Assembly (NCBI GenBank): GCA_046757465.1
Contig: JBHHYH010000017.1
Location: forward strand, 10,752-42,751
Direction of reading: 5' to 3'
Origin: Candidatus Scalinduaceae bacterium
Lineage (GTDB): Bacteria; Planctomycetota; Brocadiia; Brocadiales; Scalinduaceae
DNA: 32,000 nucleotides
Part shown: one piece after another, positions 3,944-32,000 of the stretch
How the letters are laid out: each line of letters begins with the position of its first letter
Position numbering within the stretch: the stretch's first letter is position 1
Position numbers and translations under genes: made by a program
Notes under the pieces: model-generated
What the model saw: the letters and a program-made list of their open reading frames with translations, nothing else
Told to the model about the DNA's origin: nothing
Databases searched by the model: none

Positions 3944-3957
3944 AATAAGAGAATGAT

Positions 3958-4809: not shown

Positions 4810-4813
4810 AAAA

Positions 4814-7509: not shown

Positions 7510-7643
7510 GGAATTGGCTTAGAAAACATTTTGTTTTTTGGTAAGATTGTGTATACTTAACCCAAATTATACCAGATTTTCTGATAAATCTTTGCAAAAG
7601 TCCTTAAAGGTGTATATCAAAATTTCAAATTAGGGTTGGGAAT

Positions 7644-8003
7644 ATGACCGATGGTCCTGAAAAACGAAGGTACCCAAGAGTTTCTCCTGGTGTTAATTTT
7701 GGTGTAACGGTGCAGCATGTTGACAAGAAGGACAGGGAATACTATGAAGGTATAATTAAGGATGTCAGTCATGGGGGTATGTTTATCGACACCGACCATC
7801 TACCTCCAAAAGGTAGTATGGTAGTCATACAATTTAGGTCGAACAAAGAAGGGGATGAACGGCCTGTCATTGCCAAGGGGTTGGTTTGCTGGACGCGAAA
7901 ATGGAAGCGTCCTCATGGAATGGGGATCGATTTCATCGAATTTGAGGGACTCGGAAACACTCCCTTTGAAGAATGGTTCAAGAAACATTTCCAATCACAA
8001 TAA
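7644..8003 (+). CDS. PilZ domain protein (c-di-GMP receptor)
   Basis: Both PilZ signature motifs are present with the expected spacing: RRYPR (RxxxR) and DVSHGG (D/NxSxxG). Confidence 0.8.
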   Translation: MTDGPEKRRYPRVSPGVNFGVTVQHVDKKDREYYEGIIKDVSHGGMFIDTDHLPPKGSMVVIQFRSNKEGDERPVIAKGLVCWTRKWKRPHGMGIDFIEFEGLGNTPFEEWFKKHFQSQ

Positions 8004-8318
8004 CTTTATACAATTGGGACCATAATAGGACAGACGCTTTTTTATTTCGTACCGTCTGTGGTTACCACTCAATTACCACTCAATCACGTCATTAGAATCT
8101 GATAATTGATATCCCTAAAATAGACTTGAATTAACCTTCAAGCGCCGTTAAGATAAATTCCAACGCTATTGGAGGGTATATTACATGCGATTGAAAGTAA
8201 AAAAAATTGAAGAAGAATTCCTTCAACTTCCTTCCCATGACCGAGCATAATTAGCAGCACACCTTATAAATAGTCTCTGTCTCTTTATAAACTTCAAGTT
8301 GAGAAGATATAAGACCTG

Positions 8319-9116
8319 ATGGATAACTCACTGGCAGAATATCTTGATTTTGCTATTAAGGCAAGTAAAGATGCCGGTAAACTTAATCTCGCATTCTTTG
8401 AAAAAGCCAAAAAAATTCGTATCAAGAAGGATAATTCTCTGGTAACAGAAGCTGATATCCAATCTGAGACATTAGTCAAAAATAAAATAACAAAAAGATT
8501 CCCAGAGCATGGGATTCTTGGAGAAGAATCAGGCCTAAAAAAGTCTACCTCACATTATTACTGGTGTATAGACCCTCTAGATGGAACTACAAACTTTGTC
8601 AGGGGAATACCCGTTTTTGCAGTATCAATTGCATTATTATACAGAAACAAACCCATTGTGGGTGTTGTTTATAATCCGGTCAGTAAAAATTTATTTTGTG
8701 CTGCAAAGGGAGAGGGTTCCTTTCTTAATAATACATCCTTAAAACCACCAAAAAACATACCACAAAAAGAATTAATGTTTGCGGTTCAATCGGAATATGA
8801 TGGAAGAGTTCCTGATTATTTAAATCAGATACTTAAAAAGGCAAAGATCCGTTGTATTGGAGTTGCATCGCTACATGTTTGTTATGTAGCGGCAGGGTGG
8901 GTTGATTGTTATATCGGTGATCGATGTTCTTTATGGGATATCGCTGGAGGTTCTATTATACTGACCGAGGCTGGAGGCGTTATAAGTAAGCCGGATGGCA
9001 AAAAAATCTTTCCACTAGAGTGTGATATATCAACTTATGTAGATACAAGTATACGTTGCATTGCTGCCAGGAAGAATAAACACAAAAAGATTCTCAGCGA
9101 ATATTTTTCGTCATAG
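8319..9116 (+). CDS. Inositol monophosphatase family protein
   Basis: IMPase motifs EESG, WCIDPLDGTTNF and WDIAGG. Confidence 0.85.
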   Translation: MDNSLAEYLDFAIKASKDAGKLNLAFFEKAKKIRIKKDNSLVTEADIQSETLVKNKITKRFPEHGILGEESGLKKSTSHYYWCIDPLDGTTNFVRGIPVFAVSIALLYRNKPIVGVVYNPVSKNLFCAAKGEGSFLNNTSLKPPKNIPQKELMFAVQSEYDGRVPDYLNQILKKAKIRCIGVASLHVCYVAAGWVDCYIGDRCSLWDIAGGSIILTEAGGVISKPDGKKIFPLECDISTYVDTSIRCIAARKNKHKKILSEYFSS

Positions 9117-9124
9117 ACATAATT

Positions 9125-10105
9125 ATGAAAAAAACAACAAATAGCTGCGCACTTGCTGCAGACGTAGGCGGCACAAATACCCGGATGGCAGTTGTGACAG
9201 GTGAAGGAGAGATTCTTACACAGTCGAAAAAGCCCACACATTGTAAAGAAGGCAGGGATGAAATGATTAAGTTCCTTGTTTCTTTTTCAAGAGAAACTAT
9301 TGAAAAATCACAACTGCCGAGGAAGGAAATATGTGGAATGGGAATAGGCTTTCCTGGCCCTTTGAATGCCGAGTCTGGTACAGTCTTCAACCCTCCAAAT
9401 CTAATAGGTTGGGACAACGTTCCATTGAAGGATATACTCGAAGAAGAGTTGAAAATGCCTGTTTCTATTGAAAACGACGCAAACTCAGCAGCACTGGGTG
9501 AATGGTGGAAGGGGGTAGGAACCGGGACAAACAGTTTGGTCTGCATTACATTGGGCACCGGTATCGGAGGAGGTATAATTCTGGATGGAAGAGTCTGGCA
9601 TGGTACATCATGGATAGCGGGTGAAATAGGACATACGACTATTATAAGAGACGGGATGAAGTGCACCTGTGGAAATAAAGGATGCCTTGAGGCCTATGCC
9701 TCATCCAGAGGAATTATAGAAAGAGTGAACATTGCGTTATCAGACAAAAGAGGCAAAGGTAAATTCCAGCCAATTACGGAGCTGAAGCAGTTGGACCAGT
9801 TGGTATTAGAAGGCAACGAAATTATACTAAAGGTTATTAAGGAAACCGGAGTTATACTGGGAATTGCCGTAGCTAATCTTGCAAACCTTCTAAATCCTGA
9901 AATGGTTGTATTGTTTGGAGGCGTGACTAACCTGGGAGAAAACCTCATCAAGCCTTTAAGGGAAGAAGTTAAGAAAAGGGCATTTAAAAAGGCAACTGAG
10001 TCGCTAAGGATAGAGGTAGCGAAGCTGGGTGATAACAGCGGAATACTTGGCGCAGCAAAGAGTATCTTTTTAAGGCTGCAAAGGACCTCGCTGCACAATT
10101 TATGA
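9125..10105 (+). CDS. ROK family sugar kinase (glucokinase-like)
   Basis: N-terminal ADVGGTNTR. ROK signature GTGIGGGIILDGRVWHG..GEIGH. Zinc Cys motif CTCGNKGCLE. Confidence 0.85.
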   Translation: MKKTTNSCALAADVGGTNTRMAVVTGEGEILTQSKKPTHCKEGRDEMIKFLVSFSRETIEKSQLPRKEICGMGIGFPGPLNAESGTVFNPPNLIGWDNVPLKDILEEELKMPVSIENDANSAALGEWWKGVGTGTNSLVCITLGTGIGGGIILDGRVWHGTSWIAGEIGHTTIIRDGMKCTCGNKGCLEAYASSRGIIERVNIALSDKRGKGKFQPITELKQLDQLVLEGNEIILKVIKETGVILGIAVANLANLLNPEMVVLFGGVTNLGENLIKPLREEVKKRAFKKATESLRIEVAKLGDNSGILGAAKSIFLRLQRTSLHNL

Positions 10106-10311: not shown

Positions 10312-11784
10312 CTAACTTACGGGAACACCATTTTCTACAGGGGCAGATACTGAAACAGCACTGCTCTTATACCAGTCTTGATAATAATCCCCGGAATCAT
10401 ATAATTTATGTAGATTTTCCAGTACCTGTTCAAAGACCTGTTGCCAGTCAGAACCAACCCTGAAGCCAAACATAGCGTTGCGTTTGCCATGCCTCGTACT
10501 ACCAATAGTCTTAAGTGACTTTCTAAAACGCATTCTCAGGTTGTCACCAGCATAAAGATGGTCATACATATATTGCATACCATCAATAAAATCTTCCAGG
10601 GTCATGTCAACAAATCTATGAACTACATGCGCAGTATCGTAATATTTCCAGTCAGCAGGATAATTCTTACGGAAAATCCTCTTTTCTGAATCCAATCTAT
10701 GATAAAGCTCAGTTTTTGGAAATGGACAATTGATACCAAAGGTAAGGACGTCAATGTTATTTTCCAATACAAATTCTGTCATCTTTTTGAATGAATCTTT
10801 ACCGTCTCCATCTGCTCCCAAGACTATGGACCCCCAAACAACAAGGCCGTGGTCATGAATCTTTTGAATGCAGTCATAATAATTATCCGTACCAAGTCTT
10901 AAATTGGTCTTTTTGTGCATCTTCTCCAGGACAGCTTCATTTGTCGATTCTATTCCACAGAGAAATCCAAAATTTCCACTCTTTGCCATCAGATCGAGCG
11001 CTTCCGCATCCTGCGATATATTAAGCGCCGTAAACCCTAGCCAATCCTTTTCGATACCTCTTTCTATCATCCCACGCCAGAGCGCCTTTGCCCTATTAGC
11101 AGAGTTCTTACTATGACCGTAGAAATTGTCCTCAGCAAACATTAGCCCCCTGTAATCGGTTGCCTCCATCTCATCCAGGACGTCTTCGTATGGCCTTTCC
11201 CTGAATTTTTTGCCCTGAAAGGTAGGGACGCTGCAGAAATCACAGTAATTCGGACAACCCTTCGTTGTAACAATAGAAGAGAACTTGTAATTATATTTCC
11301 TCTTCATGAGTTCTCTATTGGGAAAAACATGCTTCATTTCTGACAGGGCTGGCAACCCACCATTATAAACTTTTTTGAGCTGACCGTTTTCAAAATCCTT
11401 AATGACTTGAGGCCAGAGAGCCTCCGCTTCTCCCGTAAATATAGCATCAACGTATTTAGATGCTTCATCAGGCATTACGGATGCATGGATTCCGCCAATT
11501 ATCACGGTCATGCCTTTTTTTCTACATGCTTCAGCTATCTTGTACGCCCTTGCCACTTGATATGTAACAGAGGTCATACATACCAAATCAACAGGCTCAA
11601 AGGTTAATTCATCATTATCATCAAGGGCAAGTTCCAGATTCTCATCAATTACGTCAAACTCCCAGTCTCCGGGTGTAAGGGCGGAAATATATGCCAGATT
11701 TAAGGGCATTTGTACTATGACGGTTATACTTTCCTCACCATGCCTTCCCGGTGGGTGCGGATTGATAAGCATCATTTTTCTCAT
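10312..11784 (-). CDS. B12-binding-domain radical SAM enzyme
   Basis: N-terminal cobalamin-binding-like domain (DLVCMTSVTYQ...TVIIGGIHAS), followed by the radical SAM cluster motif CPNYCDFC (CxxxCxxC). Confidence 0.85.
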   Translation of the reverse strand: MRKMMLINPHPPGRHGEESITVIVQMPLNLAYISALTPGDWEFDVIDENLELALDDNDELTFEPVDLVCMTSVTYQVARAYKIAEACRKKGMTVIIGGIHASVMPDEASKYVDAIFTGEAEALWPQVIKDFENGQLKKVYNGGLPALSEMKHVFPNRELMKRKYNYKFSSIVTTKGCPNYCDFCSVPTFQGKKFRERPYEDVLDEMEATDYRGLMFAEDNFYGHSKNSANRAKALWRGMIERGIEKDWLGFTALNISQDAEALDLMAKSGNFGFLCGIESTNEAVLEKMHKKTNLRLGTDNYYDCIQKIHDHGLVVWGSIVLGADGDGKDSFKKMTEFVLENNIDVLTFGINCPFPKTELYHRLDSEKRIFRKNYPADWKYYDTAHVVHRFVDMTLEDFIDGMQYMYDHLYAGDNLRMRFRKSLKTIGSTRHGKRNAMFGFRVGSDWQQVFEQVLENLHKLYDSGDYYQDWYKSSAVSVSAPVENGVPVS

Positions 11785-11796
11785 TTTATTCTCCTC

Positions 11797-13242
11797 CTAA
11801 TTATTTAAAATCATATTCGCCACCCTCCAACCAGAGGATACAACCGCGCATACCCCTGGTCCCGGGTTTGTCCAATGTCCTGCTAGAAATAGATTATTGA
11901 AAGGTGTTTTATGTTGAAGTCTATTCGACCATGTCTGATCCACTGTAACAGCCCAACCGTAGGCAGCGCCTTTTGAATTGAGTGTATAGCGTTTAAGTGT
12001 CTTCGGTGTTGCTGCTTCGATAACGTCAATATGATTTCGGATGTTGGGAACAAGAGTTTCAAGATATTTTAATGTATATTCTTTCATTTCTTCTTTAAAG
12101 GTAACCCAATTTTCAATATCACCATAGTCTTCTTTTAAGGATACAACAACAGAAATTATTTGCTTTTCATCAGGGGCAAGACTTTTATCCGTTTTTGTCG
12201 GTACCGATATATAAAACCAACCATTATTGGAAAAACTTATATCATCTGACGTATGGTAAAAACCTCTTTTTAGTGCTTTTAAGTCAATGCCTTCATCAAG
12301 ACCCAGATACAATAGAAAAAATGAAATACTTTCCTTCATTGACTGGATCTTATGAAGATAGGAATCGTTAACTTCCTTTTCTTCTATTAACTCGGAAAAG
12401 GTCTGCTTTGGATCGATGTTTGATACAAAAACATCAGCAAAAAACTCTTTTCCTTTATTTGTCAAGACTCCTTTCACAAGTGTATCCCTTATATATATCT
12501 TGTTGACGGTAGAAGATAGCATAATTTGACCGCCATAGTCAATGAATTTTTGAGCAATCGCATCGGCGAAATTTTGGGTGCTGCCCACAGGGTAAAAAGC
12601 CCCATCCTTTAGATAATTTACCAGCATCTGGCACATACCAATAGCCGAGACTTCGTGAGGAGGCGAACCGATGTAGCCCCATTGTGCGGACAAGATAGCT
12701 TTAAGTTGCTCATCAGTAAAAAACTTATCTAACATTTCCTTGTAAGTAACATCTTGATATTTAGTTAGCAATTTACTTCGTTCAGCCCTAACCGTAGACC
12801 GATACAGTCCCACAAATTCTTTAAAAAAGGATGATAAATTTTCACTTTCAGATGTAAACCGTTGTTTTAGCAAATTGACGTAATCATCAATCTCGGCAGG
12901 AATATCTATAGAGAAAGAAGGAAAATTTATGCTGTCCATAGGATCAAGTCTTAAAAAATTAATATTTATATCAAGTTCTTTAAGGCTTCTACCGACTATA
13001 CTCCATTTTCCGCATCCACCAATGTGGTGAACCGCTGCGTCGAAAATAAAGCCTTTTCTTTTGAAAGAAGTGCAGTAACCCCCGGGTATATTATGTTGTT
13101 CAATTATCAAAACTTTTTTTCCACTTTTTGCTAAGAAAGCGCCGCAGATTAGTCCTCCAATCCCAGCCCCTAATATAATTACGTCATACTTGGATTGTAT
13201 TTTGGATTCATCTAAGGAAAAGTCACGTGTAGAAACGGCCAT
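11797..13242 (-). CDS. FAD-dependent oxidoreductase, CrtI / phytoene-desaturase-like
   Basis: Dinucleotide-binding motif DVIILGAGIGGLICGAFLAKSGKKVLIIE. The length (481 aa) and C-terminal GHWTNPGPG are typical of the CrtI family. Confidence 0.8.
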   Translation of the reverse strand: MAVSTRDFSLDESKIQSKYDVIILGAGIGGLICGAFLAKSGKKVLIIEQHNIPGGYCTSFKRKGFIFDAAVHHIGGCGKWSIVGRSLKELDININFLRLDPMDSINFPSFSIDIPAEIDDYVNLLKQRFTSESENLSSFFKEFVGLYRSTVRAERSKLLTKYQDVTYKEMLDKFFTDEQLKAILSAQWGYIGSPPHEVSAIGMCQMLVNYLKDGAFYPVGSTQNFADAIAQKFIDYGGQIMLSSTVNKIYIRDTLVKGVLTNKGKEFFADVFVSNIDPKQTFSELIEEKEVNDSYLHKIQSMKESISFFLLYLGLDEGIDLKALKRGFYHTSDDISFSNNGWFYISVPTKTDKSLAPDEKQIISVVVSLKEDYGDIENWVTFKEEMKEYTLKYLETLVPNIRNHIDVIEAATPKTLKRYTLNSKGAAYGWAVTVDQTWSNRLQHKTPFNNLFLAGHWTNPGPGVCAVVSSGWRVANMILNN

Positions 13243-13374
13243 ATAGTACCTTATTTCTTAAATCTTGAATAATTCTGGCAAAACATGTTCCTGACAGGCC
13301 CAGGAATATATATCAATAGAATTTCTCTGAAGTTAGGAAAGGTTAAGGGTTAGGAGGCCGGTGTAGTAGTCGGG

Positions 13375-13476
13375 CTAAGGTAAGGTAAAGATCGATTAAC
13401 TACTTAACCCACCCGCCCGTACCGAACTGTACGTTCGGGCGGGTTGACCAAACTGGCATCTTTACCCTAACCTAAC
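13375..13476. repeat. GC-rich imperfect palindrome inside the lipid operon
   Basis: Central hairpin acccgcccg (13411-13419) / cgggcgggt (13436-13444). It is flanked by ctaaggtaaggtaaagat (13375-13392) and atctttaccctaacctaac (13458-13476). Confidence 0.7.
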
Positions 13477-13555
13477 AACTTAACCAGATGTATATTAGTA
13501 CCTGTTTGGTTCTGGTCGTACCTTCGGCAGAGGCGCCGGGACGAACTTGTCCAGG

Positions 13556-14791
13556 CTAGGAGTATCTTGATATGATTAAGGATGAGATGTTGCCTGTATC
13601 TGAAAAGTCGTCAACCAGGACGTTTTTTACGTCTAATTTTCTGCTTTTATTAGGTACATAATCTAAATCGCATTCATCGTCCACTTCTTGATAATTTATT
13701 GTTGGAGGTATAACACTGTTGTTAATTGCCATTATACTTGCAACACTTTGCATTGCACCCGACGCGTCAAGGCACTCCCCCGTCATTGATTTTATAGCAC
13801 TTATGGGCACTTTCTTAGCATAACCACCAAAGTAGTCTTTAATAACCCTGGTTTCCATTCTATCACCCGTTATGCTGGAGTTTGCGCATGCAGATATGTA
13901 AGAGATGTCGTCAATATTAAGTTCCGCATCTTTCATTGCCAAAGAAATGCATCTTATACCCTCTTTAGTATCTAAATTGTCGTGGTAAATCTTTTTCGGA
14001 TTAAAGGTGTTTCCGTAACCCTTTATCTCGGCATAAATTCTTGCGTTTCTTTTTAATGCGTCCTCGAGCCTTTCTATCGCCATTAATGCAGCAGCTTCAC
14101 CAATTACGAAACCGTTGCGCCTTTTGTCATATGGTGTTGAAATCTCAATGGCGCTATCTTTGTAACCTGCTAATATTCCAGACCTGTAAGCTCCCCAAAA
14201 TATGTCCGGGGTTAAACCGTGAACTCCCCCAGCCAAAACCGCCTTCACCCTGCCTAACCTCAGGAAATCAGAGGCGTAAATAATAGCATCAAGGCCACTG
14301 GTAACTCCAGTAGATATAGTGGAGTTAAGGCCCGTGGCTTTGCAAAATATAGAGGCCCTGCTTGCAGGAGCATTTAGAACTGTATTTGGGAAGGCCATTG
14401 GATTAACATAATTAGGACCTTCCCTTAACGCTTCAAAGTCAAATGTACTGATACTATCTATACTGCCATAAGTAGAACCGATTACAATTCCTAAATCTTC
14501 CTCAGTATAGATTTCGTGCGTTATTTTAGCATCGTCCATTACAAGCTTTGCGGCTGAAGATGCCAATAGCGAAGTCCTGTCTATATGTCGTATTCCTTTC
14601 TTGCCCAAAAACACCTTTGCATCAAAATCTGATATCTCTCCCGCCTTCTTGCTCCTGTATTTGGATACGTCAAATAGTGTAATATCCTTTATCCCGGAAA
14701 CACCTTTTGTCAAATTGCTCCAAAACTCGTCTTTATTTACACCGATTGGTGACAAAATGCTAATACCTGTTATAACTAATCGAGTATCCAT
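13556..14791 (-). CDS. Ketosynthase-like protein lacking the catalytic Cys (chain-length-factor-like partner)
   Basis: Full-length thiolase-fold KS homolog. The active-site TAC-AAG is replaced by STGVTSG (Val163, codon 14303-14305). AHGTGT is replaced by ACANSS, and GHT by GEC. Confidence 0.8.
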   Translation of the reverse strand: MDTRLVITGISILSPIGVNKDEFWSNLTKGVSGIKDITLFDVSKYRSKKAGEISDFDAKVFLGKKGIRHIDRTSLLASSAAKLVMDDAKITHEIYTEEDLGIVIGSTYGSIDSISTFDFEALREGPNYVNPMAFPNTVLNAPASRASIFCKATGLNSTISTGVTSGLDAIIYASDFLRLGRVKAVLAGGVHGLTPDIFWGAYRSGILAGYKDSAIEISTPYDKRRNGFVIGEAAALMAIERLEDALKRNARIYAEIKGYGNTFNPKKIYHDNLDTKEGIRCISLAMKDAELNIDDISYISACANSSITGDRMETRVIKDYFGGYAKKVPISAIKSMTGECLDASGAMQSVASIMAINNSVIPPTINYQEVDDECDLDYVPNKSRKLDVKNVLVDDFSDTGNISSLIISRYS

Positions 14792-14873
14792 TACAATTGT
14801 TCCGTTGAAAAATTATCCCATAAAAAAAAGTTAATGGCCTTGTTCTAAGATACCATTAACAATTTAAATACTA

Positions 14874-14920
14874 AAGGGACAGGCTTCCTTTTTTATAAAA
14901 AAGATGCCTGTCCCTCTAAA
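14874..14920 (-). repeat. Conserved intergenic hairpin element (copy 2, KS to KS-like gap)
   Basis: agggacaggc...gcctgtccct is a perfect 10-bp stem flanking a T6-ata-A6 core. It has the same orientation relative to transcription as copy 1. Confidence 0.8.
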
Positions 14921-14951
14921 CATATATGAACTTGCTGAATTCTTGCACTTT

Positions 14952-16169
14952 TTAACCCGTAAACTTTTTTAATACAAGACAACTATTGTTACCGCCAAAA
15001 GCGTAAGCATTATTTAAGGCTATATTTACTTGCATCTCACGTTTTACATTAGGAACAAAATCTAGATCACACTCCGGATCTTTAGTTTCATAGTTTATTG
15101 TGGGAGGCACTATGTCTTCTTTAACAGCTAATGCACATGCGATAGCTTCTATTGCACTGGCAGCTCCCATTGTATGCCCTATCATAGATTTTATAGAAAT
15201 CACAGCCAAACGCTTTGAATGTTCTCCAAATACTTTCTTAATAGATATTGTTTCGGCCTTGTCATTAGCAACGGTTCCAGTACCATGTGCACTTATATGC
15301 TGAACATCCTCAGGCTTGATGTTGGCGTCTTTTAAGGCCTTTCTCATCGCAGACACGACACCATTTCCCTCTGGTTGTGGAATTGTGATATGATATCCGT
15401 CACAGCTTAGACCGTAACCCAGAATTTCTGCATAGATATTTGCATTCCTTGCTAATGCATCTTCCATCGATTCTAATACCAGCATCCCGGCGCCTTCACC
15501 AATTAACATTCCTTTTCTATTTTTGTCAAAAGGCTGGCATACCTCTGGCGCAATAGCATTCAGTTTGCTAAAACCAACGTAAGCTACTTTAGAAAAAGGA
15601 TCCGTACCGCCGGCTACCATAATATCTGCTCTTCCCAATCTTATCAGGTCGCATGCATAGCCAATAGCATAATTCCCTGCGGCACATGCAGTGGGAATTA
15701 TTGTATTTGGGCCCTCAAACCCGAATTCGATAGCTATGTTTGATGGAATATTGTTGCATGGGTGCTTAAGGAATAGATCTGCATCTACGTTATCATCTCC
15801 CTTTTCATATCTTAATTGGTTTACCCTTTCTAAAATTTGAATTTCACCCGCAGTTGTGCCGATTGAAACACCGACTCTTTCAAGATCAACATTTTTTACG
15901 TCAATTTTAGAGTCATCTAAGGCTAGCTTAGTTGCTGCGATTGCAAATTGTGATCCCTTGCCAACTTTTCTTGAACCGTTACTTATATAGTCTTCATACT
16001 TGAAATCTTTAACTTCACAACCGTTATGTACTTTAAAATCAGATGTGTCAAACGCCTTGACTTCCGAGGCTCCGGATACGCCGGAAGTTAATGCATCCCA
16101 GAAAATATCTTTATTGCATCCTATGGGGGATATTACACCTACACCAGTAATTACAATTCTTTTATCCAT
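14952..16169 (-). CDS. fabF: Beta-ketoacyl-ACP synthase II (FabF-type), catalytically intact
   Basis: Active-site PTACAAG (Cys162, codon 15684-15686). His motifs YHITIP and [19 protein letters not shown]. Confidence 0.9.
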
Positions 16170-22490: not shown

Positions 22491-22961
22491 CCCTTTTTAA
22501 AGACCCCTGCCTCAAATGCCAAAATTGCTTTCTTAACCCTTTCTGTACCCGTCTCCCTTGCCTTTTTTTTAATTCTTTAAAAACCTGGCAATCGTTTTAA
22601 CAAATTCTTTGGTATCAATGGGTTTGGAGATGAACGCATCACAACCAGCATTCATTATCATTTTTTTTTCTTCCTTCATTGTGCTGGCTGAACAGACTAT
22701 AAGAGTTATATTCTTTGTTATGGAATATTGTTTAAACTTTCTAACTAATTCTACCCCTCCTATATCCGGAAGCCCAGAGTCCAATAATATTAGATCCGGT
22801 ATTTCTGACTTAGCCATGTTAAACCCCTCTTTTCCATTGACAGCTTGAAGGATTAAATAACCCTCATCCTCAAGGAGGTCACTGAACAACTCCATATTCA
22901 TTAGATTGTCTTCGATGATAAGTATCCTTCCTTTAGCCATTCTTCCTCCTTAAGGGAATAG
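22491..22961. repeat. Direct repeat copy A (471 bp, period 529 bp)
   Basis: Nearly identical to 23020-23490. Contains the whole REC gene, its downstream intergenic sequence and the last ~27 bp of the kinase gene. Confidence 0.9.
22569..22940 (-). CDS. Single-domain response regulator (CheY-like), duplicate copy A
   Basis: ILIIEDN...DLILLDSGLPDIGG...ISKP. Differs from copy B at only two residues (G4/E4, L13/A13). Confidence 0.85.
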   Translation of the reverse strand: MAKGRILIIEDNLMNMELFSDLLEDEGYLILQAVNGKEGFNMAKSEIPDLILLDSGLPDIGGVELVRKFKQYSITKNITLIVCSASTMKEEKKMIMNAGCDAFISKPIDTKEFVKTIARFLKN

Positions 22962-23019
22962 ATTCTATCATCTCTATAAAGCCCTCTACCAGCTTTGGCA
23001 TCCCATTGAGTTCCCTTCC

Positions 23020-23490
23020 CCCTTTTTAAAGACCCCTGCCTCAAATGCCAAAATTGCTTTCTTAACCCTTTCTGTACCCGTCTCCCTTGCCTTTTTTTTA
23101 ATTCTTTAAAAACCTGGCAATCGTTTTAACAAATTCTTTGGTATCAATGGGTTTGGAGATGAACGCATCACAACCAGCATTCATTATCATTTTTTTTTCT
23201 TCCTTCATTGTGCTGGCTGAACAGACTATAAGAGTTATATTCTTTGTTATGGAATATTGTTTAAACTTTCTAACTAATTCTACCCCTCCTATATCCGGAA
23301 GCCCAGAGTCCAATAATATTAGATCCGGTATTTCTGACTTAGCCATGTTAAACCCCTCTTTTCCATTGACAGCTTGAAGGATTAAATAACCCTCATCCTC
23401 AAGGAGGTCACTGAACAACTCCATATTCATTGCATTGTCTTCGATGATAAGTATTCTTTCTTTAGCCATTCTTCCTCCTTAAGGGAATAG
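23020..23490. repeat. Direct repeat copy B (471 bp)
   Basis: See copy A. The few mismatches cluster at the 5' end of the REC gene. A 58-bp unique spacer (22962-23019) separates the copies. Confidence 0.9.
23098..23469 (-). CDS. Single-domain response regulator (CheY-like), duplicate copy B
   Basis: Same motifs as copy A. The start overlaps the histidine kinase stop by 8 nt. Confidence 0.85.
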   Translation of the reverse strand: MAKERILIIEDNAMNMELFSDLLEDEGYLILQAVNGKEGFNMAKSEIPDLILLDSGLPDIGGVELVRKFKQYSITKNITLIVCSASTMKEEKKMIMNAGCDAFISKPIDTKEFVKTIARFLKN

Positions 23491-26305
23491 TGAAGATAAA
23501 AGTGCTTCCTTTTCCGAATTCGCTCTCAACCCAGATCTTTCCGCCATGTAACTCCACTAGCTCTTTGGTTAAGACCAACCCCAATCCGGTGCCCCCGTGT
23601 TTTTGTGTATACTCACTCTCAATTTGGCGAAAGGTCTCAAAAAGTTTATCCATATCTTCTTCTTTTATGCCGATACCGGTATCGACCACTGAAACCCGTA
23701 GTTCCTCATCCTTAATATCAGCCCTGACGTCTACCTTGCCGCCTTCAGGGGTAAATTTTATAGCGTTGGATAGCAGGTTATACATAATCTGCTTTATCTT
23801 CCTCTCATCAGCTTTTAAAACAGATATCTCAGGTACAATATGGCTCTCTATGGTAATTTTTAATCTAAAAGCTAACTCCTTGAGGATAGTTTTAATGCCC
23901 TCTATGAGTTTTGGAAATGAGAATTCACTCGACACAAGTTCTAGCTTGCCAGCCTCAATTTTTGAAAGGTCTAGAATGTCATTGATTAAGCTTAAGAGAT
24001 CCTTGCCTCCTACGAGGATATTAGTTATGTATCTGGCTTGTTTCTCAGTAAGCTTGCCAACTCTTTCACTTTGCAATACATCGGCAAAGCCAATAACGGA
24101 ATTTAAAGGAGTTCTTAGCTCGTGAGACATATTGGCTAAGAATTCAGACTTGGCGCTGCTGGCCTTCTTTAAATGTTTGTTAAGCGTAACAAGTTCTCTA
24201 GTTCTTTCCTCAACTTTCTTTTCTAACTCTTCTCTTGCCTGGTTGTTATCATCTAACATACTTACCATTATTTCGCGGGATTTTACTGCCTCTTTTAAGG
24301 TCTGATCCAACTTCTCCTCCATCTTCCTTCTTTGTGTTATGTCAGACATAATATGACAGAACCCGACAAGAGTTCCCTTTTCATCCAGCACCGGATATGC
24401 AATTACATCGAGCCAACTATCACCAACCAGTAAAATACTGCTTTCTCTTTTATGTGTCTTCATCACCTTTACGGTAGGGCACTCTCCAATAGGTTCTGCC
24501 GCACCGTAAATAAATTTACAGCAAGACGTGCCGACAATTTCTCCAAATGGCTTTTTTGCCATATTAACCATTGCCTTGTTGCACCTTACAATCTTTCCGT
24601 CCTTATCTAGAAGGCTAATAGCATCACCCATAGCATCGAATGTTGTCCGCCACTCTCTTGCAGAATTACTCAGCGCTTCATCTAACTTCTTGCGCTCGGT
24701 GATGTCTTCTGCAACTTTAAAGAAATAGGTAGCGTCATCTTCAGGATTCTTTATAGATGAGATGGATGCGGACTCCCAGTAGAGCTCACCACTTTTTTTC
24801 TTATTATGAAATTCACCGCTCCATGTACCTCCTGTGGTAATAGTCTCCCAGAGTCGTTTGTATTCTTCGGTTGATTTTTCGCCCGATTTTAAGATGCGCG
24901 GGTTCTGCCCGATGACATCTTCTGGGGTGTAGCCTGTCACTTGTGTAAACTTTGGATTAACATATTCGATGTTGCCTTTGGCGTCCGTAATCATAACCAT
25001 ACTAGGACTTCGTTCGACTACACTAGATAACTTTTGAATCTGCTCTTCTGCCTTCTTGCGCTTGGTGATCTCTCTCGCGTGAATGCGCAAAACTTTAAAC
25101 TCTGGTATAAGATATATATCTTCTTCAAATGTTAAACTCCCTATTTTTATAATGCGGTATAATCGTGTTTCCATTTTTCCCCTTAAAGCTTTAATGATTT
25201 CATTTAAGTCCTCTGGTAAAAATAGGGTTAAGTCTTCTTTGAGACCTGACTTCTTTAGAACCTTAGAAGCTGCATTGTTGTGAAAAATAATGCCCCCAGA
25301 AAGATTTATCTCTAAAATAGGGCTGATATCCAACTGTGGGAAGGAGGCAAGGTGGCTAATTTCTTTTTCCGCCATCTTGCGCTCGGTGATGTTTTCCTTA
25401 ACAGCTATGAAATGAGTTATAATACCTTCTGAGTTTTTGATAGGTGAAATAGATGCGGACTCCCAATACAGTTCCTTGTTCTTCTTTTTGTTACAAAATT
25501 CTCCACGCCATTCACCACCTGACGTAATAATCTTCCATAAACGTTCGTATTCATCAGGTGGTGTCTTACCCGATTTTAAGATACGTGGATTTTTACCAAT
25601 AGCCTCTTCGAATGTATATCCAGTCAGTTGAGTGAACTTGGGATTAACATATTCGATGTTACCTTCAGTATCTGTGATCAAGACCGTGGACGGGCTTTGT
25701 TCTATGGCGTGAGAAAGCTTGTGTATCTGCTCTTCTGCCTTTTTACGCTTAGTGATGTCTCTTATTATGCCTATTGCATTCCACTTGCCTCTTATCTTTA
25801 CTGCCGAAAGAGATAATTCTATTGGAATTTCTGCTCCATCTTTCCTGACAGCCGCAACTTCTACCGTTTTTCCTATCATATTACCCACTCCTGTAGTCTT
25901 GAATCTTTCGAACCCTTTTAAATGTCTTTCGCGGAATCTCTCTGGTATAATTAATTGTTGTAGGTTTTCCCCTACGGTTTCCTCACTTGAGTAACCAAAG
26001 ATTCTTTCGGAGGCTTTATTCCAATAAGAAATCCTTTCATCATTACTCAACATAATGATAGCATCTTGAGCTGAAGTGGTTATTTCTCTGAACTTCTCTT
26101 CACTTTCACGTAACATATGCTCCATGTGTTTGCGCTTCTTTATTTCCTGCATTAAGGCATTTTTTGCTATCTCTAATTCACTGATTAGAGCCTTAGATTC
26201 TTCTTTCCTGATCTCAGATTCCAAAGTTAGGTGAGCTTTTTTGTGCAGCGATTCTTTCGGGGTTTCAACAGACAACTTATTGTTACTATCAGGTGAAGAT
26301 TTCAT
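23462..26305 (-). CDS. Multi-PAS sensor histidine kinase
   Basis: N-terminal coiled coil. Four PAS-type modules separated by ITxRKKAEE linkers. H-box MSHELRTPLN (His728, codon 24122-24124). HATPase boxes NLLSNAIKFTP, DTGIGI, GGTGLGL. Confidence 0.9.
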   Translation of the reverse strand: MKSSPDSNNKLSVETPKESLHKKAHLTLESEIRKEESKALISELEIAKNALMQEIKKRKHMEHMLRESEEKFREITTSAQDAIIMLSNDERISYWNKASERIFGYSSEETVGENLQQLIIPERFRERHLKGFERFKTTGVGNMIGKTVEVAAVRKDGAEIPIELSLSAVKIRGKWNAIGIIRDITKRKKAEEQIHKLSHAIEQSPSTVLITDTEGNIEYVNPKFTQLTGYTFEEAIGKNPRILKSGKTPPDEYERLWKIITSGGEWRGEFCNKKKNKELYWESASISPIKNSEGIITHFIAVKENITERKMAEKEISHLASFPQLDISPILEINLSGGIIFHNNAASKVLKKSGLKEDLTLFLPEDLNEIIKALRGKMETRLYRIIKIGSLTFEEDIYLIPEFKVLRIHAREITKRKKAEEQIQKLSSVVERSPSMVMITDAKGNIEYVNPKFTQVTGYTPEDVIGQNPRILKSGEKSTEEYKRLWETITTGGTWSGEFHNKKKSGELYWESASISSIKNPEDDATYFFKVAEDITERKKLDEALSNSAREWRTTFDAMGDAISLLDKDGKIVRCNKAMVNMAKKPFGEIVGTSCCKFIYGAAEPIGECPTVKVMKTHKRESSILLVGDSWLDVIAYPVLDEKGTLVGFCHIMSDITQRRKMEEKLDQTLKEAVKSREIMVSMLDDNNQAREELEKKVEERTRELVTLNKHLKKASSAKSEFLANMSHELRTPLNSVIGFADVLQSERVGKLTEKQARYITNILVGGKDLLSLINDILDLSKIEAGKLELVSSEFSFPKLIEGIKTILKELAFRLKITIESHIVPEISVLKADERKIKQIMYNLLSNAIKFTPEGGKVDVRADIKDEELRVSVVDTGIGIKEEDMDKLFETFRQIESEYTQKHGGTGLGLVLTKELVELHGGKIWVESEFGKGSTFIFTIPLRRKNG

Positions 26306-27045
26306 ACTTTACCTTCCAATTTAAAGATATTTCCAGTCATCTCAGGTCTCAGTGTGATTAACTTTACAGAAGGATTTAGGCTGAGAAACAAATTTGCCGT
26401 TTCATTGCTGATTTTCTCCCTGCTGAAGATAATAATAACATAAATCATATCAGTCTTATACCACCCCCCAAATCCAAACACTGACTCGATACCAAAGGGT
26501 TCAACAAACTCTGCCTGTTTAGGAATGAGTTTACTCCCCCTGGCCTCTTCGACACAAAAAATCCCGAATTCATGTTCTTCCCTGTCGATTATGATGCTTT
26601 TATCAGCTTTTGCTAGCTCAGAGATATTGAAACCTATCTGACTTAAAAGAGCTGATAGCATAGGAATATCGTAAACTATGCGAGCGTCATATAAAGGCAA
26701 AGCCTGGTGTCCTTTAGATTCTTTTCTGCAATTCCACTCTTTCAAATCTCCCGAAGTTCCCAACAAGGTTAAGTATCTATTTTGAGCAGGCATTTTTTCT
26801 CTACCCTCGTTATGTTGAATGTATTTTTTTATATCATCCGGAAGTTCTTCATATATACATGATTTAAAAAATCGACTTAGAACGAAGGCTCTCTCTCCAC
26901 TATTGGTAATAAAGACCTGGCAGAATGTGTTCATTAGTTCCTGGGTAGTTTCTTCTAAGCTTGATAATCCCTTGCACCTTTCTTTAATGAACTGAGATAG
27001 TTCGAATATATTAGTTAGAGTCAATTCCTTAACTTTAATTTGCAT
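26302..27045 (-). CDS. Protein of unknown function, translationally coupled to the PAS kinase
   Basis: A 247-aa ORF with no recognisable motif. Its stop overlaps the kinase start (ATGA at 26302-26305). Soluble mixed alpha/beta character. Confidence 0.6.
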   Translation of the reverse strand: MQIKVKELTLTNIFELSQFIKERCKGLSSLEETTQELMNTFCQVFITNSGERAFVLSRFFKSCIYEELPDDIKKYIQHNEGREKMPAQNRYLTLLGTSGDLKEWNCRKESKGHQALPLYDARIVYDIPMLSALLSQIGFNISELAKADKSIIIDREEHEFGIFCVEEARGSKLIPKQAEFVEPFGIESVFGFGGWYKTDMIYVIIIFSREKISNETANLFLSLNPSVKLITLRPEMTGNIFKLEGKV

Positions 27046-27287
27046 ATCTTTTAAGATAGTTTAACATTGCTTGCCTGAATGAAGCCCGCCCGAGCAGGTA
27101 GCCATAAAATATCGCAGCAAGATGCTGCTCCTACAGCGGAAAAAAGCTTTCCTCAGCAGAAAACAATTACCAATAACAAATAACTAAGAGAGTAGATGGT
27201 AGAGAGTAGCAAGTAGAGTGAAGATGGAAAGGGAAGTACATTTACGATTGTTTTTCATGTCAAGCAACTCTCCTCGCTACTTGCAAG

Positions 27288-28847
27288 TTATGACTTTTTA
27301 TCACCCAGCCTTGCCTCCAGTTTCTCTACCCTCTTTTTTAATTCCACTATTCGCTCTTCACGACCGATGTTTGCCTTGTAAAATACCTCGAGTTCGTGTA
27401 AATGTTTTTCTCTCTCCTTTTCCATCTTTTTGCGTTCGGTGATCTCAGCACGAAGTTGCTGTTCATCTACCTTTAATTGTTGATTAGAGGCCCTTAGTTG
27501 TTGCTCGCTTGCCCTTAGCTGCTGGTTTGTGGCTTTTAGCTGCTGCTCGCTCGCCTGTAGTTGTTGGTTTGCGGCTTTTAGCTGCTGCTCGCTCGCCCTT
27601 AGCTGCTGCCCGCTCGCTTTTAACTGTTGGTTAGCAGCTTCCAGCATCTCTTCAGCCTTTTTGCGCTCGGTAATCTCTTCATTCAACTTATCACGCGATG
27701 TGATGATTGTTTTTAAGTTATCCGTCATTTGATTGAAGGCAACAGCCAATTTGCCAAGTTCATCTCTGGATTTAATATTCACCTTAGCAGTCAGGTCACC
27801 TTTGCCAACAGTACTTGATGCATCTGCCAGCTTGCGGATAGGGTTGGCTATGCCTCGGGAAAAAGCTACGGCGACAATCACCACTAAAATGCCAATAATA
27901 ATCAAAACAAAAAATAATTTTATTCTTAAAGCAGTCACGGGAGCAAATGCTTCTTTTGTATCAATTTTACCCACTATCCCCCATTTCATTGATGGAAGAT
28001 GTTTCCAAACTGCCAGTATTTCTTCCTTTCTATAATCTATAGATAAACCTTTACCTCCCTTCCCTTGCACAGATTCCTGGATTGGTAGTGCCAGATTGCT
28101 TCCTAGAATAACTGTAGGCGGATCATTAGTATGACGTAACTGAGTAATAAATTTTATTTTATGACCCACCTTCTGACCAAGTAATATTTCCCCCGTCTCT
28201 CCCAATCCTTCTTGATCATTTGTAATATCATTCAAAACTTGAGCTCTTACTTTAAATAAAACTGCTCCGGCAAACTTCGCATCTTCATAATCTCTGATTG
28301 CCTGGAGAAAAATCAGGAATTCTTCTCCCGTTAAGGGATCAGTATTAAAACCGCCAAAGAATGTTCCCTTTGACTTTACACCTTGTAAGTAATGATCAGG
28401 CATCTTCTTACCGACAAGTTCTTTGTTTGTGTTAGCAACAATAGTTCCCTTAGTATCCCAAATACCGATAATCTCAATCGCAGTGGCTTTATCAATATCA
28501 CCATACCCACTCTTTGGCTGCATTTTCATCTCTTCAAGAATAGATTCAATATTGGCCTGGATTTTAGCAATATCTTCTGGGTCATTAACCCCACTTGATT
28601 CCAATTGTCTGGGTAAAAAAGTTCCAGCAAGTTCTTTGGCCTGCTCCTGCCGCAGTTGAATTAAGTGAGTAATATCAGACACACGTGAATTAGTGACTGC
28701 TTCCAAACTTGCGAAAGCCTGCTTTTTCAGATTAGCCCTGGCGCTATCATAGCTTATATAGCCCACAATGCCAACCGGCACAATTGAAACAACTAAAAAC
28801 AATACTATCAATTTAGTCCGCAAGCTTCTGGTAATAAAATTTGTCAT
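27288..28847 (-). CDS. Cache-HAMP membrane receptor ending in a coiled coil, with no kinase or MCP signalling domain
   Basis: TM1 (LIVLFLVVSIVPVGIVGYI). Extracytoplasmic domain of about 280 aa, of dCache size. TM2 (LFFVLIIIGILVVIVAVAF). HAMP (PIRKLADAS...ELGKLAVAFNQMTDNL). Then nine QQ heptads and a 53-aa helical tail. Confidence 0.8.
   Translation of the reverse strand: MTNFITRSLRTKLIVLFLVVSIVPVGIVGYISYDSARANLKKQAFASLEAVTNSRVSDITHLIQLRQEQAKELAGTFLPRQLESSGVNDPEDIAKIQANIESILEEMKMQPKSGYGDIDKATAIEIIGIWDTKGTIVANTNKELVGKKMPDHYLQGVKSKGTFFGGFNTDPLTGEEFLIFLQAIRDYEDAKFAGAVLFKVRAQVLNDITNDQEGLGETGEILLGQKVGHKIKFITQLRHTNDPPTVILGSNLALPIQESVQGKGGKGLSIDYRKEEILAVWKHLPSMKWGIVGKIDTKEAFAPVTALRIKLFFVLIIIGILVVIVAVAFSRGIANPIRKLADASSTVGKGDLTAKVNIKSRDELGKLAVAFNQMTDNLKTIITSRDKLNEEITERKKAEEMLEAANQQLKASGQQLRASEQQLKAANQQLQASEQQLKATNQQLRASEQQLRASNQQLKVDEQQLRAEITERKKMEKEREKHLHELEVFYKANIGREERIVELKKRVEKLEARLGDKKS
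27450..27638 (-). repeat. 21-bp tandem repeat (9 units, 42-bp higher-order alternation) encoding A-x-x-Q-Q-L-K/R heptads
   Basis: The DNA units ttagctgctgctcgctcgcc / ttagttgttggtttgcggct recur head to tail. Translation: AANQQLK ASGQQLR ASEQQLK AANQQLQ ASEQQLK ATNQQLR ASEQQLR ASNQQLK VDEQQLR. Confidence 0.9.
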
Positions 28848-28925: not shown

Positions 28926-29040
28926 GGGGAAGAATCTCTTTTACGAAAAACCAATACGTAATCATATTTATGGACACATGTACTTAGTTGGCTTACAGAC
29001 AAGAGATTCTTCATTCCACTTCGTTTCATTCAGAATGACA
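28926..29040. repeat. REP-like element, same family
   Basis: ggggaagaatctctt (28926-28940) pairs with aagagattcttc (29001-29012). 29001-29040 read on the minus strand is tgtcattctgaatgaaacgaagtggaatgaagaatctctt. Confidence 0.6.
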
Positions 29041-29101: not shown

Positions 29102-29398
29102 TTATTTGCCATTATTAGTTAAAATACCAATTCTATTTATCAAATAACCCAAAACAGAATCTACAATTTCTTTTGAAATACTCACTTCCCCTAGTACATC
29201 TGCTCCACCCACAAGGTTTATCTCTAAATCTTTTATCTCGGCGACCAATTTCCTCATCGTATTGAACAAAACATCTAATGCATCGTTTGGCGTTTTACCG
29301 GTAAAAATTCTTCCTCTACCGATGCCTTCAGATACTTCGATCCTAAATAGAATAAAGAGAAGTTCTAATTCCCGTTGAATTCTTGCTGCGCTTTCATA
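29102..29398 (-). pseudogene. cheD-like relic (middle/C-terminal part only, no start codon)
   Basis: A 98-codon open frame begins right after a TGA and has no ATG near its 5' end. NDALDVLFNTMRKLVAEIKDLEINLVGGADVLGE aligns by eye with RDAIENLLFKMTRLGTVKDNISACLVGGGNVLQD of the adjacent intact CheD. Confidence 0.4.
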
Positions 29399-29912: not shown

Positions 29913-30158
29913 CTAATACCTTTTAATTTTAGCATTGAGCTTACGAATTTCCTCTTTCAATTCCCGTATCCGCTCTTCACGACCAATGGTTGCCTTGTAA
30001 AATATCTCGAGGTCGCGTAAATGTTCTTTAGTCTCATCTTCCATCTTTTTGCGCTCTGCACAAATCTCTGCCTCGCGTATCTCTCACTCAATTGCAGCAG
30101 TAAGACGTATCAGATTGTCTTTCAACAGGTAGTCGTGCGCGCCCTTTTTTTCACAGCG
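29913..30158 (-). pseudogene. Relic of a REC C-terminus fused to a coiled-coil tail, interrupted by an in-frame TGA
   Basis: Minus-strand translation: RCEKKGAHDYLLKDNLIRLTAAIE*EIREAEICAERKKMEDETKEHLRDLEIFYKATIGREERIRELKEEIRKLNAKIKRY*. GAHDYLLK is a receiver alpha4-beta5 motif. The tail is paralogous to the last ~50 aa of the Cache-HAMP protein. Confidence 0.45.
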
Positions 30159-30159
30159 A

Positions 30160-30537
30160 CTACTTACACAATCGATTCTCAATACACGTAATCAAGTCAT
30201 CAAGTTTCACTGGTTTAGCCAAGAACGTGCAACCAGCAATATTGCTACCTGTGGATTCTGCTTCTTCCTTTTTCAATATAGCTGTTAAAAACACTATAGG
30301 AATATATTTCAAGTTCTCATCATCAAGAATCTTTGCACCGACTGCGCCTCCATCCACGTCAGGCATAACTACATCAAGTATAATCAGGTCGGGCTGAAAC
30401 TGCTGTGCCGAGGCATACGCGAGAGCCCCGACGTTTTCTTCTCTTACTTCATATTTTCCAGTTGCCTCAAGATTTTCCCTTAACATGCAAGTGAGACTTG
30501 CATCGTCGTCAACTACCAAAATCTTCTTCTTGGGCAT
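30160..30537 (-). CDS. Single-domain response regulator (CheY-like)
   Basis: ILVVDDD...DLIILDVVMPDVDG...LAKP. Confidence 0.85.
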   Translation of the reverse strand: MPKKKILVVDDDASLTCMLRENLEATGKYEVREENVGALAYASAQQFQPDLIILDVVMPDVDGGAVGAKILDDENLKYIPIVFLTAILKKEEAESTGSNIAGCTFLAKPVKLDDLITCIENRLCK

Positions 30538-31107: not shown

Positions 31108-32000
31108 CTACTTCTTAGCTTTCAGCACATTACTTATATCTCTTCTCAACTCTGAAAATTTAAAAGGTTTCTTGACAATAAAGTCCACGTTCAAGTCCTC
31201 TTTCTTTACGTCCTTTATCTCGTACCTCCAACCAGTTATTAGACCCACCCTTGGCCTTTTATCCAGCGCATCTAGCGCCTTTATTACGTCCCTTCCAGTA
31301 ACCTCTGGCATTACCAGGTCACATATCACGAGATCAAAACCATTACTTTTTGCTAGTTTGATGGCCTCAGCGCCACTGTTAACACTCCTGACTTTATGGC
31401 CCTCTTTAGTAAAGAAATTACTTAAAACCTCGCACATATCCTCCTCATCGTCCACCACCAATATATTGAGAATCCTGGCTGTCTTCTCCTTTGTTGGTTT
31501 GGAAGATATCTCAGAACGGGCAGTATTACTGGTAACCGGTAGACATATGGTTAACGTACTGCCTTTTCCCATCTCGCTTTTCACGTTTATCTTACCACCG
31601 TATCTTTTCATTATGCCGTAGCTAACGCTCATACCCAATCCACTTCCTTCAGGCCTCCTGGTAGTGAAAAAGGGGTCAAATATCCTTTTCTGCACCTCTT
31701 CGGGCATACCCTTCCCGGTGTCAGAAACACTTACAAATATGGTACAGTCACTTTTCCATGTGCAAAAGGAAAGATGGCCACCATCAGGCATTGCATCCAG
31801 GGCATTATTTATTAGATTTACCAATACCTCTTTCAACTCTACAGGATTACCCGGTAAGGGTGGTACTTCCTTGATGCCTTCCATATCTATGTAGTAGGTT
31901 ATCCCCTTAGCCTGAGCCATATTCTTCCATCTGGGCATTGTGAAACCAACCGCCTCTCTTATCAAATGCCTCATATCTACTGATACAAATCGTGATCTAT
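31108..32000 (-). CDS. Hybrid histidine kinase (HATPase + REC), 5' end outside the window
   Basis: The frame is open upstream of the listed M to the window edge. HATPase boxes NLINNALDAMP, DTGKGM, GSGLGM. C-terminal receiver VVDDEE...DLVICDLVMPEVTG...VKKP. Confidence 0.85.
   Translation of the reverse strand, partial: RSRFVSVDMRHLIREAVGFTMPRWKNMAQAKGITYYIDMEGIKEVPPLPGNPVELKEVLVNLINNALDAMPDGGHLSFCTWKSDCTIFVSVSDTGKGMPEEVQKRIFDPFFTTRRPEGSGLGMSVSYGIMKRYGGKINVKSEMGKGSTLTICLPVTSNTARSEISSKPTKEKTARILNILVVDDEEDMCEVLSNFFTKEGHKVRSVNSGAEAIKLAKSNGFDLVICDLVMPEVTGRDVIKALDALDKRPRVGLITGWRYEIKDVKKEDLNVDFIVKKPFKFSELRRDISNVLKAKK

Follow-up and report, generated by a model that had tools for sequence, protein, structure and literature searches.

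Sensor protein and heptad array

We analyzed a 32,000-nucleotide stretch of a Candidatus Scalinduaceae genome (GenBank assembly GCA_046757465.1, contig JBHHYH010000017.1, positions 10,752 to 42,751 of the forward strand; hereafter the window), which encodes a membrane sensor carrying nine consecutive Gln-Gln heptads and, upstream of it, a protein of the CheD family. The sensor is built, in this order, from a dCache domain, a transmembrane (TM) helix, a HAMP domain, the heptad array and a C-terminal tail (Table 1). The dCache_1 match of the sensor itself is sub-threshold (23 bits against a cut-off of 45), and PF02743 is assigned on close homologs. The HAMP domain follows the TM helix, the arrangement seen in HAMP-containing transducers. 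A Pfam scan of the protein found no MCPsignal domain (PF00015), the mark of methyl-accepting chemotaxis proteins (MCPs), and no HisKA or HATPase domain. In this respect, the scan agrees with a preliminary description, made from the letters of the DNA, which had noted that the sensor has neither an MCP signalling tip nor a kinase domain.

The nine abutting heptads reported in that description were confirmed residue by residue in the translation. Each unit carries Ala at position f, Ala, Ser or Thr at g, Asn, Glu or Gly at a, Gln at b and c, Leu at d and Lys, Arg or Gln at e, giving 18 Gln residues at positions b and c. With eight Lys/Arg and five Asp/Glu residues, the array has a net charge of +3, and 'ITERK'-type motifs stand on either side of it in the sensor translation. 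The adaptation sites of MCPs follow the consensus [ASTG][ASTG]xx[EQ][EQ]xx[ASTG][ASTG], in which the second Glx occupies heptad position c (PMC6829392). The array has the same register as MCPs, its Gln-Gln pairs being at b and c and its Leu at d. The earlier claim that every unit is a perfect consensus site held in part: the pattern A-x-x-Q-Q-x-x-A is found in seven of the nine sites, whereas in heptads 8 and 9 one of the flanking residues is Val. Compared to the 10-residue MCP consensus, up to nine of ten positions agree, but the first position is always Lys, Arg, Gln or Glu.

An AlphaFold2 (AF2) model of residues 300–519 (mean predicted local distance difference test score of 91) shows one unbroken helix from residue 363 to 517, reaching from the second HAMP helix to the C-terminus. 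A Q-linker, a flexible Gln-rich linker between domains, is ruled out by this strictly periodic predicted helix. On the DNA level, the predicted 21-bp tandem repeat was recovered by Tandem Repeats Finder, which reported for positions 27490–27626 a period of 21 (6.1 copies, 67% matches) and a period of 42 (2.7 copies, 83% matches). There is no second such array anywhere in the 3.3-Mb genome. In a contig of about 95% identity that stems from a different sample of the study, exactly 21 bases are missing at position 27590, corresponding to one heptad.

The two halves of the sensor resemble different proteins. Residues 1–400 are about 80% identical to P0002, a histidine kinase of Candidatus Scalindua, whereas nothing is shared after residue 400, where P0002 proceeds to HisKA-HATPase and the sensor to array and tail. 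From the array onwards, the sensor is 74% identical to the C-terminus of P0040, a protein of a Thermodesulfobacteriota assembly, such that its output end looks swapped in. P0040 and a partial CheD protein (P0123), itself 89% identical to the CheD of the window, appear to share one 3.7-kb contig, and the swapped-in output end probably arrived together with cheD.

CheD subfamily and its coupling to arrays

The cheD gene was expected about 0.5 kb upstream on the same strand, and its open reading frame (ORF) in fact ends 546 bp before the start of the sensor gene. In a CheD search of the whole genome, the encoded protein scored 63.9 bits. In Thermotoga maritima CheD, Cys27 and His44 are reported to be the catalytic residues and Thr21 the third active-site residue (Chao et al. 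2006). The window CheD aligns to the T. maritima protein (2F9Z_C) with an E-value of 8e-17, and its residues C33 and H50 match the Cys and His of the latter. Within the subfamily defined by the window protein, the catalytic Cys and the His are each present in 82 of 82 aligned sequences, and at the position equivalent to Thr21, 71 sequences have Ser, 8 (among them the window CheD) have Ala and 2 have Thr. Profile scores set this subfamily apart. Using the subfamily profile, the window CheD reaches 260 bits as compared to 80 bits for the canonical CheD of the same genome, and members in general score 162–267 bits as compared to 51–80 bits for canonical CheDs. The best NCBIfam CheD equivalog of the window protein yields 89.7 bits against a cut-off of 240, and the subfamily falls short of all NCBIfam CheD equivalog cut-offs. 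The gene for the canonical CheD of the genome lies on contig C68 and precedes a CheR gene by about 1.2 kb. In the window locus, a Pfam scan found no che genes, placing its cheD outside a canonical che cluster. The window protein belongs to a distinct CheD subfamily tied to the arrays and not to chemotaxis.

We followed the pairing of array and CheD in both directions. An alignment of 30 relatives of the window CheD (A1) served as the sole query for fetching 79 loci from species genomes. Strict arrays, having at least three Gln-Gln heptads, were present in 66 of these loci, and short or degenerate arrays lay directly beside cheD in 5 more. Eight loci were without array, five of them being cut by a contig end. 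In 38 loci the nearest array was at most 1 kb away, and this number rises to 55 loci for a distance of 2 kb and to 63 for 3 kb. Of the arrays on the strand of the CheD-like gene, 48 lay downstream and 10 upstream of it; 8 were on the opposite strand. Mostly the array was in the adjacent gene, and in two cases the array protein was fused to CheD. Likewise, CheD was found in all three neighbourhoods of kinase-less sensor homologs that we examined, once as a fusion with a PAS protein. CheR was encoded in only 1 of the 79 loci, and CheB, CheW and MCPs in none. The role in CheR methylation that the preliminary description had considered possible for the array therefore has no genomic backing.

For the reverse direction, we scanned a sample of 301 genomes from the same phylum with a DNA pattern that encodes three heptads. 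The pattern matched in seven genomes and, when read backwards, in none, which speaks against chance. Applying a threshold of E<=1e-35, the CheD subfamily was detected in six of the 301 genomes, and these are exactly the six that have true arrays, distributed over five families. In all six, the home genome included, array and CheD reside on one contig at a distance of 0.5–2.4 kb. The seventh genome (G159) is a false positive, its match stemming from a non-signalling protein with a generic Gln-rich coiled coil; a CheD-like gene was not found in this genome, which is 84% complete. Neither array nor CheD subfamily was present in 15 sampled genomes of the same order. We also inspected five large or complete genomes of other groups (G301–G305). 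Each array locus in these genomes was within 9 kb of a CheD scoring 172–224 bits against the subfamily profile, the distance being about 2 kb or less with the exception of one locus. CheDs scoring 51–78 bits were located elsewhere, their neighbours in G303 and G304 being CheR and MCP genes. G301 and G305 gave no MCPsignal match, and G305 also gave no CheR match. Although related genomes do not count as independent cases, the same pattern appears in unrelated phyla and holds in both directions, with the module seen in Planctomycetota, Bacteroidota, Omnitrophota, Ignavibacteria-type and Desulfobacterota-type genomes, among others. It is therefore well supported that the distinct CheD subfamily and the Gln-Gln arrays form a conserved, patchily distributed two-part module, and this module sits inside two-component signalling loci without CheA, CheW, MCP or CheB and, save for the one case above, without CheR. 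A compact version is present in a named strain, Sunxiuqinia indica RC1_OXG_1F (NZ_WVEM01000014.1), in which the CheD-like gene is followed by a 455-residue protein with a short N-terminal array, PAS, HisKA and HATPase domains, offering a practical model organism for experiments on the module.

The array is not peculiar to the window sensor, being a widespread module that is mostly carried by PAS histidine kinases. Searching with the sensor retrieved about 100 proteins in which the array is the sole similarity. Many of them have two or three arrays, and most are PAS histidine kinases and HAMP proteins. Among 51 array proteins encoded next to CheD-like genes, Pfam assigned PAS and HATPase_c domains to 31 each, HisKA to 20, REC to 13, HAMP to 8, GAF to 6 and a fused CheD to 2, while MCPsignal (PF00015) was assigned to none. 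Some array proteins received PF27881 and similar newer Pfam accessions, one of which could already describe the repeat. We determined the composition of 815 heptads from 88 arrays adjoining CheD-like genes. The register proved to be conserved, with Ala at f in 91%, Gln at b in 86%, Gln at c in 87% and Leu at d in 99% of the heptads; position a is occupied by Asn (51%) or Glu (42%). Judged by this pattern, the array is not an arbitrary Gln-rich coiled coil. The strong conservation at b, c and f, positions averted from the core, points to recognition by a partner rather than to packing. Arrays comprise 3–13 heptads (median of 6), and the related contig mentioned above is one 21-base unit shorter, in line with the repeat-number variation anticipated beforehand. 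Such whole-heptad changes preserve both the reading frame and the helical phase. Register and cheD adjacency, the two computational points on which the preliminary description had made its proposal depend, were both tested with favourable outcomes, the adjacency being strongly conserved from CheD to array as well as from array to CheD.

C-terminal tail and remaining genes of the locus

Downstream of the array, the sensor ends with a conserved helical segment of 45–50 residues that is typical of kinase-less sensors and has the consensus ERKK..LE.F.KA.VGRE.RI.ELKK (alignment A3). Searched against 1.84 billion proteins, the tail profile matched 16,471 cluster representatives at E<=1e-3 and 1,255 at the stricter threshold of E<=1e-10, nearly always at the extreme C-terminus. 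Tail carriers are sensor-only proteins, with PAS domains in 86 of 104, in addition to REC, PocR, GAF, Cache, CHASE and HAMP; no kinase or cyclase domain is among the 25 most frequent families listed. The local Pfam library contained no model for the tail. Because its carriers are sensor-only and arrays occur in just 5 of 139 top tail proteins, we regard the tail as a separate, uncharacterised output module. The idea that it is linked to CheD was ruled out, as tails are present in 17 of the 79 loci and the tail family is far broader than the arrays.

The genome has two tails in total, both at the window locus. The second constitutes a short tail-only ORF between a response regulator gene and cheD and, together with an out-of-frame stretch resembling the end of a receiver domain, probably represents what is left of a REC-tail gene. 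Between cheD and the sensor gene, a weak CheD-like fragment holds a 55-residue ORF, which suggests a decayed duplicate and a past rearrangement of the locus. The large PAS kinase encoded downstream of the sensor, relatives of which are found in 67 of the 79 CheD-like loci, is likely the kinase of the locus. REC relatives are present in 55–56 of the 79 loci. In the window, two tandem response regulators are 98% identical (121 of 123 residues) and look like a recent duplication. An ORF of 247 residues overlapping the start of the PAS kinase gene was ruled out as a conserved partner, having no relative in the 79 related loci; it shows no similarity to the 257-residue ORF at the same place in locus L008.

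Table 1. Features of the sensor–CheD locus in the window (ORF coordinates and domain assignments)
Feature	Position	Strand	Evidence
REC-REC protein, 291 aa	21603..22478	minus	Pfam
Two tandem single-domain response-regulator genes, 123 aa each	22569..23469	minus	Pfam
947-aa kinase: four PAS, HisKA, HATPase	23462..26305	minus	Pfam
247-aa ORF, overlapping the start of the PAS kinase gene	26302..27045	minus	no Pfam or NCBIfam match
Kinase-less membrane sensor gene, 519 aa	27288..28847	minus	ORF translation
Sensor: C-terminal tail, aa 471–519, ERKK..HLHELEVFYKA.IGREERI.ELKK	27291..27437	minus	profile search
Sensor: nine-heptad Gln-Gln array, aa 404–466	27450..27638	minus	translation
Sensor: HAMP domain, aa 329–379	27711..27863	minus	Pfam PF00672, E=6e-16
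Sensor: periplasmic dCache-like sensor domain, aa 40–293	27969..28730	minus	Pfam dCache_1
Weak CheD-like fragment	29105..29398	minus	subfamily profile, 25 bits, profile positions 63–118
CheD-family gene, 171 aa	29394..29909	minus	Pfam CheD (PF03975), 63 bits against a cut-off of 25
Short tail-only ORF, 43 aa from ATG, 56 aa from stop to stop	29913..30044	minus	tail profile, 65.8 bits
Out-of-frame stretch like the C-terminal end of a receiver domain	30084..30182	minus	sequence reading
Single-domain response regulator	30160..30537	minus	Pfam Response_reg, E=1e-16
Hybrid histidine kinase, 3' part, HATPase_c and REC, running off the window	31108..31998	minus	Pfam

Intergenic stretches flanking the sensor gene (27107–27218 and 28945–29040) also match several other contigs of the source metagenomes at a higher summed depth and look like small dispersed repeats. 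One of them is overlapped by a 7/14-bp tandem repeat (AGAGAGT) at 27187–27227. Elsewhere in the window, the minus strand at 10312–16169 encodes in a row a B12-binding radical-SAM protein, a flavin amine-oxidase-like protein and two ketoacyl synthases, reminiscent of the ladderane-type lipid clusters of anammox bacteria and fitting the Scalindua-like best match of the sensor. On the plus strand, positions 2927–6652 contain genes for VWA-domain and BatD-domain proteins of the Bat aerotolerance-operon type.

The array as candidate target of CheD

With moderate confidence, we read the array as a multi-site Gln-to-Glu substrate of the neighbouring CheD-family enzyme. If it is not a substrate, it would, as the best reading, at least be a docking site of its cognate CheD, and in either role the array would represent an MCP-like adaptation region transplanted into two-component signalling. 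The genomic coupling of the two partners is well supported, and the chemistry is what we infer from their sequences. The array resembles the adaptation region of MCPs from B. subtilis and T. maritima in the Glx-Glx pairs at b/c, the small flanks and the heptad spacing, and its partner enzyme is likewise a CheD-family protein that has kept Cys and His. In contrast to the MCP system, however, array carriers lack the MCP signalling domain and the loci lack CheA, CheW, CheB and, but for one, CheR. Moreover, arrays present 3–13 abutting sites on one helix, whereas the few sites of MCPs are distributed between two antiparallel helices. All sites of the array are encoded as Gln-Gln, its core position a is Asn or Glu rather than hydrophobic, and the linked CheD forms, by profile scores, a separate subfamily. 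A second known case, the CheC-CheD pair (PDB 2F9Z), resembles the proposed module in that a non-receptor protein presents a receptor-like helix to CheD, and a Gln residue engineered into CheC gets deamidated (PMC3513319). The difference is that the signalling protein has the array built into its own chain, with many sites; no CheC-family protein was seen in the loci.

We envisage the following mechanism. The sensor would dimerize via a single long helix that extends from HAMP, by way of the array, into the C-terminal tail. In the resulting parallel stalk, Leu at d and alternating Asn and Glu at a would make a marginal coiled-coil core, while the exposed Gln-Gln pairs at b/c, flanked by small residues at f and g, would mimic the geometry of an MCP adaptation site. 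The CheD-like enzyme, by means of its conserved Cys and His, would then turn array Gln into Glu. Up to 18 sites per chain could change, shifting the charge of the stalk from about +3 to about -15. By analogy with the methylation helices of MCPs, this charge change would alter helix packing and stiffness and hence the signalling bias and the signal passed from sensor to output. Because neither the methyltransferase CheR nor CheB belongs to the module, the modification would be one-way, acting as a set-point, a timer or a slow adaptation that is reset through protein turnover. The single-domain response regulators of the locus may feed back on CheD, and the window carrier, having no kinase, would deliver its output via the conserved C-terminal tail.

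Several observations weigh against a deamidation target. Three loci (L014, L029 and L053) have ample flanks but no array. The window CheD carries Ala27 at the position equivalent to Thr21, and for this reason the window copy could be less active. It is also odd that Gln is kept so strictly, with nothing to reverse the change, if Glu is the working state. In addition, fusions of CheD with HisKA-HATPase (P0241–P0245) are without Gln-Gln arrays, so the subfamily can work with other partners. Finally, binding and not catalysis is reported as the main mode of action of B. subtilis CheD (PMC3513319). Complex predictions for the CheD-like protein with array residues 392–474 gave scores of 0.06, 0.45 and 0.01, which we do not use as evidence either way. 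As a separate observation, P0241–P0245 carry instead two to three copies of the repeat 'A[SY]LN[IL]MED[LM]E', and a similar motif is found in the linker of the Scalindua paralog P0002. The 'LN.MED' repeat was ruled out as a general alternative target, being near only 2 of the 79 CheD-like genes.

Some of these points would suit docking without chemistry, the main alternative. In this reading, the array serves as a multivalent platform to which the CheD-like protein binds, thereby exerting allosteric control over the sensor or kinase with little or no deamidation. Gln would then be conserved as a binding determinant, much as B. subtilis CheD has been proposed to act on receptors and CheC. The genomic coupling of CheD and array fits this possibility equally, the retention of Gln and not Glu suits a ligand that is not consumed, and the Ala of the window CheD as well as the B. 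subtilis work, in which binding rather than deamidation is argued to be key in chemotaxis (PMC3513319), agree with it. We nevertheless consider it unlikely. The invariance of Cys and His throughout the subfamily is hard to explain in the absence of catalysis and makes pure binding less likely, and according to the domain tallies, the loci contain no CheC-like competitor.

Signalling helices are heptad helices of about 40 residues that connect signalling domains and have a conserved central motif. We know of no described signalling helix that is coupled to the gene of a modifying enzyme or composed of tandem Gln-Gln units. Conceivably, the array is just such a coiled-coil stalk, a passive spacer, and CheD acts instead on another part of the locus, for example the kinase, a response regulator or the tail. 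The array does occupy the place of the interdomain helix in histidine kinases, changes its length by whole heptads, is predicted to be a continuous helix between input and output and has ITERK-type flanks, and the signalling helix is already known as a heptad linker (Anantharaman, Balaji and Aravind 2006, PMC1592074); the CheD-HisKA fusions without arrays are also compatible with a spacer. The array differs, however, in its tandem near-identical heptads, its invariant exposed Gln-Gln pairs and its coupling to a modifying-enzyme gene. A spacer needs neither these Gln residues nor the Ala at f, and it leaves unexplained both the joint presence and absence of arrays and CheD subfamily across the 301 genomes and the CheD-array fusions. 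Since the tail is far more widespread than the arrays (5 of 139), it is not the shared feature on which CheD could act. We thus regard a purely structural stalk as improbable.

Still less probable, in our estimate, is a full MCP-like cycle, in which the Glu residues arising from deamidation are reversibly methylated by CheR and CheB encoded elsewhere, resulting in true adaptation. The home genome does have two CheR genes (contigs C68 and C51) and, on C51, at least one CheB gene, but its CheR genes are located in other clusters, the near absence of CheR and CheB from the 79 loci is at odds with such a cycle, and G305 has the module without any CheR match. Glu-Glu heptads of the 'STNEELQ' type, which follow a CheR domain in long ORFs of other genomes, and similar heptads in the kinase beside CheR and CheB on C51 could be taken to favour it. 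The 'STNEELQ' proteins share with the array the small residues at f/g, Asn at a, the Glx pair at b/c and Leu at d, yet their pairs are Glu-Glu and their partners are CheR and CheB, not CheD. Such long CheR-containing proteins are annotated as CheB/CheR fusion proteins. We found 'STNEELQ' arrays right after the CheR domain in ORFs of 873–1114 residues from three Bacteroidales genomes and one Kapabacteria genome (L089–L092). In the home genome, the C51 region 3364–9141 comprises a 1400-residue ORF with a HisKA-like H-box and 'EELRQTNEELE' heptads, followed by CheR and a stand-alone CheB.

That the 21-bp repeat mainly serves to vary gene function in the manner of a contingency locus is hardly credible, despite the tandem repeat (period 21/42) and the related contig that is one unit shorter, as unit changes stay in frame and keep the heptad phase so that nothing is switched off, the DNA copies are only 67–83% alike, and what is conserved between phyla is the protein sequence.

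Chemotaxis textbooks explain sensory adaptation and memory by covalent modification of Glx sites. Such modification is not known to occur outside MCPs, and classical two-component sensors are not known to have a covalent adaptation layer. In the literature searched, we found no description of a CheD subfamily paired with Gln-Gln arrays in two-component proteins, which is weak evidence of novelty given that most subscription journals were outside coverage. The new part would be that receptor modification of the CheD type has moved onto non-MCP sensors, and at least one complete genome carrying the module is without an MCP match. Returning to the array as a CheD target, the data suggest that chemoreceptor-style covalent modification may also tune ordinary sensor proteins. 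The CheD-array module would, if this is true, extend the principle of Glx modification to two-component signalling, explain a very common, uncharacterised linker motif and provide a candidate function for CheD homologs outside che clusters. In addition, the modular, phase-keeping array could be used for engineering tunable sensors. More tentatively, we propose that Glx-pair heptad arrays may be portable, MCP-like modules of covalent modification beyond chemotaxis, with the dedicated CheD subfamily writing the Gln-Gln arrays and with CheR and CheB, fused to the Glu-Glu arrays or encoded next to them, both writing and erasing the latter. Were this possibility to hold, sensor kinases and kinase-less sensors of many phyla would have an unnoticed layer of chemical memory and adaptation.

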